Source of the DNA: Dictyostelium discoideum
Taxonomy: Eukaryota
DNA length: 64,000 bases
Assembly (NCBI GenBank): GCA_000004695.1
Contig: CM000152.2
Coordinates: 1,184,001 to 1,248,000, forward strand
Direction: 5' to 3'
The first letter of the stretch is position 1. Every line of letters begins with the position of its first letter. This document shows, piece after piece, positions 59,679 to 64,000 of the stretch. The notes below the pieces were generated by a model that saw only the letters and a list, made by a program, of their open reading frames with translations, searched no databases and had not been told where the DNA came from. The translations under genes were made by a program, and so were the position numbers.

Positions 59679-60853
59679 TTATTTATCTCTTTTATAAATT
59701 TTTGATAATATTTTTAAAAATACGCTTGGAGGTAAATAAATACAAGTGGTTTTAATTTTATCTATTAAAAAATTGTAACTTGTATTTTCATAATCTTTGA
59801 AAATTTTTTCAAGATTAATTTCTTTATAAATCTTTTTTACAATTTCAACATCAGTTGGATTATCGAAACCATAATGTTTTTTTAATAAATTGATTTGGTC
59901 TGGAGTACCATTGAGAATTGCTTGACAAATCATCCATGAACATTTATTCTCTTCAATATCTCTACCGATTTTACCAAATACTTCTGGTGAACCATAACAA
60001 TCTAAGAAATCATCTTGAACTTGAAAATATACACCCATTGGTAATAAAATATCTTTTGCTGTTGTAAATGCTTGTTCATGGTTTATTTTGGACATTAACA
60101 TTGCTAGTGCAACTGGAAAAAAAAATGAATAATATGCTGTTTTATATTCAGTAATTCTAGTATGACTATAAAAAATAAAATTAATTAATCACACAGACAC
60201 ACATATGTTAATTAAATCTAAAACATATTAATAATAATAAAAATAATAATAATAATTATAAATACAAACTTTTTTAAATTAATTGATGAGAAATCACCTC
60301 TAATTGGTTGAGTTGTTAAATCTAATAATTGACCTAATTGAGTTTGAAATCCGGTTTTATGGAATAATTCTACAATATTTAAATAGTAGGATTCATTTTT
60401 AAAGTATTTTTCAAGTAAAATAAAAACACATGATTCAATTATAAAGGAATCATTAATTGCAGCTAAACCAACTTCTTGATCAGAGTTTGGTCTCTTTTGT
60501 TTATACCAACATGGTTTACCCCTTCTTTTTAGTGACTGATCCATTATATCATCAGAGACCAAATAGCATGCTTGAAATATTTCAACACACCAACCCAATG
60601 TTTGGGCTTGGAAAATTTCATGTCTTGTTAGAGCTCTACCTTCATTTAATGATTCCAATGATTCAAGTACACTAATTCCTCTATTCATTTTTCCACCTGT
60701 TGAATTTGCTTTTATCACGGTTTCAATCCAGTGGATTGATTCTTTTGGAAAATCAATCTTTTCCAATTCCTTTTTAATTTCATTTAATAAAATTGGGAAC
60801 AAATTAGCAAATTCTTCCAAAACTTCTTTATCATTCTTTTTCAAATTATTCAT
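59679..60853 (-). CDS. Farnesyl diphosphate synthase (polyprenyl synthetase), paralog A. Exons on the minus strand: 60853..60270 and 60165..59679.
   Basis: The first Asp-rich motif is 'LGWCVEIFQACYLVSDDIMDQSLKRRGKPCWY' and the second is 'FQVQDDFLDCYG'. 'GKIGRDIEENKCSW' and the C-terminus 'KIYKRDK' fit the FPPS consensus. Donor AA|GTTTGT is at 60269 (phase 2) and acceptor tatAG at 60166. The junction reads '...[33 protein letters not shown]...'. Confidence 0.8.
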
Positions 60854-60920
60854 TTCTTTTTTAAAAAGATAATCTATAAAAAATAAAAAATAAAAAATAA
60901 TAATGATAATTATTATAAAT

Positions 60921-60923
60921 AAA

Positions 60924-60966
<43 letters not shown>

Positions 60967-60980
60967 TAATAATAATAATG

Positions 60981-61041
<61 letters not shown>

Positions 61042-61050
61042 AAATAGAAA
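60921..61050. repeat. (AAT)n intergenic microsatellite between the two FPPS paralogs.
   Basis: A near-perfect AAT run of about 43 units. Confidence 0.9.
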
Positions 61051-61342
61051 TGATAAAAAAAAATAAGAAATTTAAAGAAAATGAAAATAAATAATTTTTA
61101 ATGCAATTGTAAAAAAAATAATTAAATGTGGATTTAATATTTTATTTTTTTATTTTTTTTATTAGGTGGTATTAATATATAATTAATATTATCCGATAAT
61201 TATTTTTTTAAAAAAAATCTTAATGTGGTTAAAAAGGTTTGTTGTATATAATAATAAGTTTTATTATTATTTGGTAGTTATTGTAATTGAGAATTACTGA
61301 CAGGACTTACTTGTGGGATGACAATATAACCTTTAACAGACT

Positions 61343-61377
<35 letters not shown>

Positions 61378-61548
61378 TCAGTCAAAAAAATTTGGAAATA
61401 ATCACAACAGTTTAAAATTTAATTTTTGTAATTATTATTTTTTTTTTAATTATTTTTTAATTTTATTGTATTGTTATTATTATTATTATTATTTTTTTTT
61501 TTTAAAAAAAAAATTTAAATATTTTTAAAATAGAAAATAAAAAAAAAT

Positions 61549-62725
61549 TTATAAATCTCTTTTATAAATCTTTGATAATAATTTAATGAAAACTTCTTGT
61601 GGCATAATTCTAACTGATTTGATCTTACTGATAAGGAAAGCATAGGATTCATCTTCATAATCTTTGAAGATCTTTTTGAGACCAATTTCACCATAAATCT
61701 TTTTAACTAATTCTACATCAGTTGGATTATCGAGACCATAATGTTTTTTTAATAAATTGATTTGTTCTGGTGTACCATTGAGAATTGCTTGACAAATCAT
61801 CCATGAACATTTATTCTCTTCAATATCTCTACCAATTTTACCAATAACAGCTGGTGAACCATAACAATCTAAGAAATCATCTTGAACTTGGAAGAATTCA
61901 CCCATTGGTAATAAAATATCTTTTGCTGTTGAAAATGCTGGTGTACTAGTAATACCTGCCATTAACATTGCTAATGCAACTGGTAAATAAAATGAATAAT
62001 ATGCAGTTTTATATTTAACAATACGACGATAACTTTTAAATAAAAAAAAAAATATATTAGTATTTTGTATATATAATAAATATTTAATATATATATATAT
62101 ATATATATAATCTAAAAATATATATTTACGTATTTAAAGTGAATAATGAGAAATCACCTCTATTTGGTTGAGTTGTTAAATCTAATAATTGACCTAATTC
62201 AGTTTGATAAGATGTTTCATGGAAAATATCTAAGATATCAGCATAGTATGGTTCATTTCTAAAGTATTTTTTAATGAGGATATAGATGCAAGATTCCAAG
62301 ATGAAAGAATCATTAATTGCAATTGAACCAATGGTACCATTGTTTGAGATTGGATTTGCTTGTCTATACCAACATGGTTGACCTCTACGAGTGATCGATT
62401 GATCCATAATATCATCAGCAACTAAAAAGAATGCTTGAAGCCATTCGACACACCAACCTAAAACATTTGCTAAAAAGATTTCGCTACGTGATAATTGACG
62501 ACCTTCAACTAATAATTGAAGTGAGTGGAGTACGGTGAGACCACGATTCATTTTACCACCTGAAACATTAACATTGATCATCTTTTCAACCCATGCAATT
62601 GTTTGTGGTGGCATGTCCATACCTGGTAATTCCTTTAAGATTTCATTGGTTAAAATTGGGAAAATCTCCACAAAATCTGCTAATTCTTCTTTTGCTGTCT
62701 TTATTGGTGCTGATGTTTGGTTCAT
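61549..62725 (-). CDS. Farnesyl diphosphate synthase, paralog B, the second member of the tandem pair. Exons on the minus strand: 62725..62130 and 62032..61549.
   Basis: 'MNQTSAPIKTAKEELADFVEIFP...' aligns with the mature N-terminus of human FPPS ('MNGDQNSDVYAQEKQDFVQHF'). It carries 'LGWCVEWLQAFFLVADDIMDQSITRRGQPCWY' and 'FQVQDDFLDCYG'. Donor AC|GTAAAT is at 62129 and acceptor aaAG at 62033. The junction reads '...[34 protein letters not shown]...', collinear with human 'RYKSIVKYKTAFYSFYLP'. The intron position matches paralog A. Confidence 0.8.
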
Positions 62726-63145
62726 GTTTAATTCTAAATATAAAAACAAATATAAAAATATAGAATAAAAAAATAAAAAATAAAAAAAAATAAAAAAATA
62801 AAAAATTGTTTTTTTTTTTTTTAAACAATTAAACAATTTAAAAAAAGAAGGGGTTTTTAAATGGGATAAAAAAAAAAAAAATAAAAAAAAAAATAAAAAT
62901 TTATAAAAAAAAAAATGGGTTAATATTTTTGAGTTAAGGCACAACACAATACAAATAAGGTTATGTAAGTAACATAATAAAAAAAATAAATAAATAAAAA
63001 AAAACAATAAATTTTTTTTTTAACAAAAGAAAATAAAAATAAAAAAATTAAAAATAAAAATTTTATGATTATTAATTTTTTTTTTTTTTTTTTTTTTATA
63101 ATTTAATTAAAAATAGAAAATCTATTAATAGTTTATAATACAAAC

Positions 63146-63206
63146 CTGAAGTTGGAGCTAAGTGTTCAGATATCATAGCAGCTCTTTGGAGTGATTGGTT
63201 GTTCAT
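63146..63206 (-). CDS. Candidate alternative or upstream coding exon (20 codons plus 1 nt), possibly an N-terminal extension of FPPS paralog B.
   Basis: A roughly 45% GC island in the AT desert reads 'ATGAACAACCAATCACTCCAAAGAGCTGCTATGATATCTGAACACTTAGCTCCAACTTCAG' (MNNQSLQRAAMISEHLAPTS) and is followed by a GTTTGT donor. An acceptor tatttAG at 62735-62734 would join it in frame (G+AA) to '...LNMNQTSAPIK' of FPPS-B. There is no other downstream exon candidate before FPPS-B. Confidence 0.3.
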
Positions 63207-63274
63207 TTGTTATTTATGACAATCGTCTATTTTTTCAAAACGTGATAAAAACAAAAATAAAAAAAAAAAAATCA

Positions 63275-63318
<44 letters not shown>

Positions 63319-63335
63319 AAAAAATGAAAAAAAAT

Positions 63336-63367
<32 letters not shown>

Positions 63368-64000
63368 TAAAATAAAATAAAGGTTTCCCACTTATCAATG
63401 ATTGAAAGTTATTTGTTCTATTTTTATTTATTTTTATTCATTTTTTTATTTTTTATTTTTTATTTTTTTATGTTCTGTTTTAAATTTAATTTAAAAAATA
63501 AACCAATTATGATAATTGTAGACTCCAATTTTATTTTGAATTAATTTTTTAATTTTTTTTTTTGAAAACACACAATTTTGAATTTCCCGCTTTTTTTTCA
63601 CAGTTATAATTTGAAAAAAATGTTTTTATTTTTTTCTTTTTTTTTTTAATTAAATTAATTTTTTTCTTTTTTTTTTTTAATATTTTTTTTTCTTATTCTA
63701 ATTTTTTTTTTTTTTTTTTTTTTTTTTTCTCTATAATTAATTAAACTGAATATCAATCTATATATTAATTTTTAACAAACAAATAAACAAAAAAAAAATA
63801 AAAATAAAAATAAAAAAAAAAAAAAAATAATAAATTAATAAATTAATTGGAAAAAAAAAAAAAAAAAAAAAAAGAAATAATAAATCGGAACATGTAAGTT
63901 ATACAACACTTTATCAATTTTAATTTTTTTTTTTTTTTTTCCTATATAAACATATAAATACATAGATGGGATTCGAAGTTAACTTTTTTTTTTTTTTTTT

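Follow-up and report, generated by a model that had tools for sequence, protein, structure and literature searches.

The 61-nt island at positions 63206-63146 on the minus strand is, with a probability of roughly 0.9, the first coding exon of fps, the gene for farnesyl diphosphate synthase (FPPS) in Dictyostelium discoideum: a mini-exon that acts as an 'address label', encodes a PTS2 that is bound by Pex7 and is most likely used constitutively. It lies in a window (the whole stretch of DNA that was analysed, 64 kb) that is very AT-rich, with short GT..AG introns and exons of normal GC content, a composition that is typical for Dictyostelium. The exon has the sequence ATGAACAACCAATCACTCCAAAGAGCTGCTATGATATCTGAACACTTAGCTCCAACTTCAG; it runs from the start codon (ATG, 63206-63204, minus strand) to codon 20 and base 1 of codon 21, and encodes the peptide MNNQSLQRAAMISEHLAPTS followed by the first base of the next codon. 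A GTTTGT donor follows at 63145, directly after the exon end at 63146, and opens intron 1 (63145-62734, minus strand), which is 412 nt long, in phase 1 and closed by the acceptor ...TATTTAG, with its AG at 62735-62734 and exon 2 starting at 62733. Joining 63146 to 62733 gives ...TCA G|AA TTA AAC ATG AAC..., which is read in frame and in phase 1 as ...S-E-L-N-M-N-Q-T-S-A-P-I-K. Without splicing, read-through from the exon 1 ATG reaches a stop after 36 codons. An earlier note on this DNA had described an ATG-initiated island of 61 nt and normal GC content that ends at a GTTTGT donor and would be spliced in frame to 62733 by a tatttAG acceptor at 62735-62734. The borders proved exact to the base on the minus strand, the GC content is 41% against 9.7% in intron 1 and 13% in the 200 nt upstream, and the splice is correct, its product being the reference protein.

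The remainder of the gene consists of exon 2 (62733-62130, minus strand), which holds the codon for Met24 (62725-62723) and the first Asp-rich motif, LVADDIMD; intron 2 (62129-62033, minus strand; 97 nt, phase 2, GTAAAT...AAAAG); and exon 3 (62032-61549, minus strand), which contains the second Asp-rich motif, VQDDFLD, and includes the TAA stop. Joined, the segments 63206-63146, 62733-62130 and 62032-61549 form a CDS of 1149 nt that encodes 382 aa. In a sequence look-up this product matched exactly EAL67969.1 (recorded as 'farnesyl diphosphate synthase [Dictyostelium discoideum AX4]'), XP_641990.1 and UniRef100_Q9NH03 (FPS_DICDI). It carries the precomputed domain PF00348 (polyprenyl_synt) and both DDxxD motifs, DDIMD and DDFLD, which characterise it as a farnesyl diphosphate synthase; the activity of the enzyme and its targeting by bisphosphonates have been published (PMC3465988). 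Because the spliced product is identical to Q9NH03 and XP_641990.1, the exon is the one annotated as first coding exon in the reference model and not the new candidate that had been proposed, and its function was shown in 2012 (PMC3465988). Four 'transposase-like' JGI proteins of 47-52 aa (P0003, P0004, P0007 and P0008) share the 90%-identity cluster of Fps (P0001) and were considered as short Fps isoforms. They were rejected, having no similarity to Fps, and their presence in the cluster is an artefact of clustering.

The structures of orthologous genes were solved from six dictyostelid genomic loci that represent five species, D. citrinum with two assemblies. All dictyostelid loci examined have a mini-exon of 49-64 nt that bears the PTS2 and is followed, at the same position, by a phase-1 intron; the island is thus kept upstream of fps orthologues in related species, a point that the earlier note had named as a check. 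Exon 1 and intron 1 measure 61 and 412 nt in the window, 61 and 410 nt in another D. discoideum assembly (L001), 61 and 393 nt in D. firmibasis (L004), 61 and 524 nt (L010) or 61 and 618 nt (L009) in D. citrinum, 64 and 580 nt in D. purpureum (L002), 49 and 710 nt in P. violaceum (L003), and 64 and 97 nt in A. subglobosum (L005). Identity to D. discoideum is 83-95% over exon 1, 56-61% over the 400 nt upstream and 37-55% over intron 1. The codon changes in exon 1 relative to D. discoideum amount to 14 synonymous and 2 non-synonymous ones, distributed as three and none in D. citrinum, seven and one in D. firmibasis, and four and one in D. purpureum. Judged by these substitutions, exon 1 is under purifying selection.

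In its Petriv-type form the PTS2 consensus is (R/K)(L/V/I/Q)XX(L/V/I/H/Q)(L/S/G/A/K)X(H/Q)(L/A/F). It is printed without the (H/Q) position in the paper that describes the signal of the D. discoideum enzyme (PMC3465988). A motif scan placed the nonapeptide RAAMISEHL at codons 8-16 of exon 1 (63185-63159, minus strand), where its function is known from the same work (PMC3465988). A regular-expression scan showed agreement at the key positions R1, I5, S6, H8 and L9; the strict form of position 2 (L/V/I/Q) is replaced by Ala in D. discoideum, D. citrinum and D. firmibasis. The strict consensus is followed by RVAMISEHL in D. purpureum, RISVISEHL in P. violaceum and RVAIISSHL in A. subglobosum. As the Ala variant works in the published experiments, RAAMISEHL is best called an 'atypical PTS2' (PMC3465988); the consensus merely describes the signal, whose definition depends on targeting and on the need for Pex7. 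The signal is N-terminal and precedes the folded domain, occupying residues 8-16 of 382, with the conserved FPPS core starting at about residue 35. When the 64-kb window is translated in six frames, the loose PTS2 pattern is matched 11 times, so that the motif alone is insufficient as evidence.

Direct evidence comes from the study of DdFDPS (Q9NH03), which is identical, as gene and as protein, to fps in the window (Nuttall, Hettema & Watts 2012, Biochem J 447:353; PMC3465988). DdFDPS-GFP colocalised with mRFP-PTS1 in peroxisomes, and residues 1-22 were able to carry GFP to the same mRFP-PTS1-labelled compartment, whereas 11-22-GFP was cytosolic; the substitutions R8A and H15A impaired import and shifted the protein to the cytosol (PMC3465988). 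In the gene, residues 1-22 are encoded by the whole of exon 1 and bases 1-5 of exon 2. In the heterologous host S. cerevisiae, import of DdFDPS-GFP was lost in pex7-delta and kept in pex5-delta cells (PMC3465988). Some residual import of full-length mutants without the PTS2 was explained by the authors as piggy-backing on the endogenous enzyme (PMC3465988). With canonical PTS2 proteins such as thiolase the signal shares its N-terminal nonapeptide, R1, I5, S6, the H-L pair at positions 8-9 and the dependence on Pex7, and thiolase and Fps have in common that the enzyme is imported as a dimer and that piggy-backing is possible (PMC3465988). It differs from the canonical signal by the Ala at position 2, which is found in D. 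discoideum, D. citrinum, D. firmibasis and Planoprotostelium (RAQMLTGHL).

The published constructs also contain the splice. The oligonucleotide 'FDP 1 coding' reads ...GCTCCAACTTCAGAATTA..., in which exon 1 is followed directly by AATTA, i.e. the junction of 63146 and 62733 (PMC3465988). For the full-length ORF, the over-expression plasmid of Sugden et al. 2005 was the PCR template and one primer lay on the exon 1 ATG; with a C-terminal GFP this ORF was functional in amoebae and in yeast (PMC3465988). Since the unspliced sequence stops after 36 codons, the template of these constructs is taken to have been spliced, intron-free cDNA. Of the two outcomes that the earlier note had named as refuting, neither came about: the junction TCAG|AATTA is present in published constructs, and the island is not part of a separate transcript. 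Transcription would start just upstream of 63206; removal of the 412-nt intron 1 joins 63146 to 62733 and adds 22-23 residues before the conserved FPPS core. In the cytosol the receptor Pex7 binds RAAMISEHL and brings the folded, dimeric Fps into the peroxisomal matrix. The use of exon 1 would be constitutive rather than alternative.

That exon 1 is most likely constitutive is based on the annotation, on the published cDNA-derived constructs and on the lack of a short form in the databases. The 359-aa form starting at Met24 was absent, by exact look-up, from a collection of about 15 billion protein sequences, and a literature search yielded no relevant report of fps isoforms or intron retention in D. 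discoideum. Directly upstream of the exon 1 ATG lies a segment of 37 nt, ATCACGTTTTGAAAAAATAGACGATTGTCATAAATAA (63246-63210, minus strand), that shows no differences in D. citrinum and hardly any in D. firmibasis; it sits inside longer blastn-short matches of 85-91% identity, and the remaining upstream region is about 56-61% identical. This conserved segment is located just downstream of an oligo-dT tract of roughly 90 nt, and it is probably 5' UTR, initiator or TSS region, or else part of the core promoter. Such a leader fits a transcript that begins with exon 1. The proposal that exon 1 is an alternative 5' exon is thus unsupported: the long form is the only one on record and the conserved leader stands directly upstream of its ATG.

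There is a second in-frame start at the untargeted core, Met24 (62725-62723), three codons into exon 2. We consider it rather improbable that a PTS2-less, cytosolic FPPS of 359 aa is also made from this codon as a functional isoform, by transcripts that start in intron 1 or retain it. One gene would then serve two compartments, as with FPS1L and FPS1S of Arabidopsis. Several observations point indirectly in that direction. D. citrinum, D. firmibasis, D. purpureum and P. violaceum likewise have a Met at the Met24 position, and in the species that conserve it intron 1 is 393-710 nt long, compared with 60-112 nt for the other introns of the same genes. Intron 1 of D. discoideum contains a block of 30 nt, CCTTAACTCAAAAATATTAACCCATTTTTT (62939-62910, minus strand), that is identical at 28 of 30 positions in both D. 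citrinum assemblies and at 23 of 24 in D. firmibasis (93-96%, against 37-55% for the whole intron) and is followed by TATAAA and a long oligo-dT tract. A role as an internal promoter, or in regulation from within the intron, is conceivable for the block. A regulated switch at intron 1 of dictyostelid fps, working through splicing or the choice of promoter and having as its parts the 62939-62910 block, the long intron and the intron-retaining RNAs described below, is similarly improbable.

These RNAs come from a P. violaceum-like species, whose FPPS protein shares 97% identity with the P. violaceum one. Three contigs, L006, L007 and L008, were found in two JGI samples (3300028164 and 3300028160) and one Logan run (SRR8446436), respectively, and they are RNA-derived because the 60-nt intron 2 has been removed. 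The stretches concerned are 1-656 of L006, 1-359 of L007 and 1-380 of L008. L006 keeps the complete intron 1; L008 has lost no more than the final 265 nt of it, by a splice between an internal GTTTGT donor and the canonical acceptor, and the two contigs are otherwise identical (1161/1161). All RNA contigs on record for this relative keep all or part of intron 1. In them the PTS2 ORF terminates, and the ORF from the Met24 equivalent (P0013) alone is intact. The JGI metagenome and metatranscriptome contigs held no match to the junction that correct splicing would give in the P. violaceum-like species. The junction of the D. discoideum complex, CCAACTTCWGAATTAAAYATGAA, likewise had no match in these contigs, which apparently are without D. 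discoideum RNA.

Several points stand against the alternative use of exon 1. FDPS-GFP was confined to peroxisomes even when it was highly over-expressed (PMC3465988), which implies that Met24 is not appreciably used on the spliced mRNA. The short D. discoideum form is missing from the protein collection, and the reference annotation has the long form only. The intron-retaining contigs have many ATGs upstream of the intact ORF as well as the terminated PTS2 ORF, and they could represent unprocessed or unproductive RNA. Strings of TATAAA and oligo-dT are ubiquitous in the non-coding DNA of Dictyostelium, and A. subglobosum has no Met at the Met24 position. Besides, the adjoining tandem paralogue lacks a PTS2 and could cover any cytosolic need. 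Constitutive inclusion of exon 1 therefore remains the preferred reading.

Other eukaryotes have long mitochondrial FPPS isoforms. In the long isoform of mammalian FDPS, including the human one, the extension is a mitochondrial presequence that is added via alternative 5' ends, and Arabidopsis FPS1 provides a mitochondrial FPS1L and a cytosolic FPS1S, for which two transcript classes are documented. What fps shares with Arabidopsis FPS1 and human FDPS is an N-terminal extension and, where the core begins, another in-frame Met from which a shorter enzyme without targeting could in principle be made; these genes, however, have two transcript classes and a mitochondrial presequence, whereas D. 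discoideum fps has one documented product with a peroxisomal PTS2. It is highly improbable that the extension of Fps is itself a mitochondrial or other presequence, as in mammalian, insect and plant FPPS isoforms. Its location before the conserved FPPS core would be in agreement with this, but the peptide of 20 residues has just one Arg and one Glu, residue 21 being another Glu, and fits a PTS2 and not a basic amphipathic presequence. Nor can a presequence be reconciled with the colocalisation of FDPS-GFP and 1-22-GFP with mRFP-PTS1 or with Pex7-dependent import (PMC3465988). The organelle-targeting extension that the earlier note had suggested is consequently real as a targeting peptide (1-22-GFP, Pex7 dependence; PMC3465988), but it does not lead to the mitochondrion, since its target is the peroxisome. 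The analogy with mammalian FDPS applies to an extension before the FPPS core; the organelle, the type of signal (PTS2, Pex7) and, so far as is known, the constitutive use differ, and the resemblance is superficial. Finally, the idea that the island is a chance ORF or a piece of a separate transcript unrelated to fps can draw on the chance occurrence of short ORFs that begin with ATG and of loose PTS2 matches (the 11 in the six-frame translation of the window), but its likelihood is practically negligible in view of the identity of the spliced product to the reference protein, the exon and intron phase kept in six loci, the ratio of 14 synonymous to 2 non-synonymous substitutions, the zero Rfam matches in the region and the published functional constructs that start at the exon 1 ATG.

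Downstream of fps, on the same strand, lies a tandem FPPS paralogue (about 59682-60853, minus strand) of about 356 aa with its start at 60853. Its identity to Fps is about 59-61% in the first exon and 74-76% in the second. The only intron lies where fps has intron 2 and begins with the GTTTGT donor that the earlier note had also ascribed to the paralogue. The N-terminus is not extended, nothing PTS2-like is found anywhere upstream, and the group of paralogues to which it belongs is likewise without an extension; the tandem paralogue is presumably not peroxisomal, as far as its sequence can tell. The tandem arrangement is also found in D. citrinum and D. firmibasis, and at the fps loci of D. 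purpureum and P. violaceum a gene with an LSM domain is found downstream instead of the paralogue.

Between the two FPPS genes a second GC-normal island, TTAGTCTGTTAAAGGTTATATTGTCATCCCACAAGTAAGTCCTGTCAGTAATTCTCAATTAC (61345-61285, minus strand), is present with a GTAAGT donor-like site. It contains no ATG-initiated ORF and has no Rfam match; a scan of 61300-64000 and 60800-61600 at E<=1 revealed no RNA family in this intergenic island or in intron 1. It was considered as an upstream exon of the paralogue, either of the PTS2 type or non-coding, and set aside, given that there is no PTS2 in any frame and that it is unconserved in related species; a non-coding 5' exon is at most a tentative reading of it. 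Just upstream of the paralogue start, at about 60930-61050, a long microsatellite, (ATT)n/(TTA)n, extends over about 120 nt, simple-sequence DNA that is typical for Dictyostelium.

PTS2-like cores are not confined to the dictyostelids. Among the FPPS homologues with a long N-terminus (at least 70 residues before the GGKxNRG motif; drawn from proteins P0009-P0067), 41 of 44 have an R-x3-[LVIHQ]-x2-[HQ]-[LAFI] core near the N-terminus; homologues with a short N-terminus have no room for the motif. The 41 sequences with the core are mostly unnamed metatranscriptome sequences, many from soil, and the labelled ones are amoebozoan. Examples are RAQMLTGHL in Planoprotostelium and RTTAIQQHL in a transcriptome sequence with the truncated label 'Filamo...'. 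Thr is the commonest residue at position 2 of these cores; Ala occurs there, apart from D. discoideum, in D. citrinum, D. firmibasis, Planoprotostelium and P0055 (RAQALSAHL).

Compared with the published work, in which gene structure is not discussed (PMC3465988), the small additions made here are that the signal has its own mini-exon with a conserved phase-1 intron and that most FPPS homologues with a long N-terminus have a PTS2 core. A coding mini-exon of 61 nt and its splice junction could be recovered from raw, AT-rich sequence alone. What was rediscovered in this way is that the FPPS of D. discoideum, the target of nitrogen-containing bisphosphonates, reaches the peroxisomes via an N-terminal PTS2. 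If exon 1 were truly alternative, one gene could supply both peroxisomal and cytosolic isoprenoid synthesis. The distribution of PTS2-like cores among the homologues suggests that a peroxisomal FPPS is widespread, and perhaps ancestral, in the Amoebozoa.
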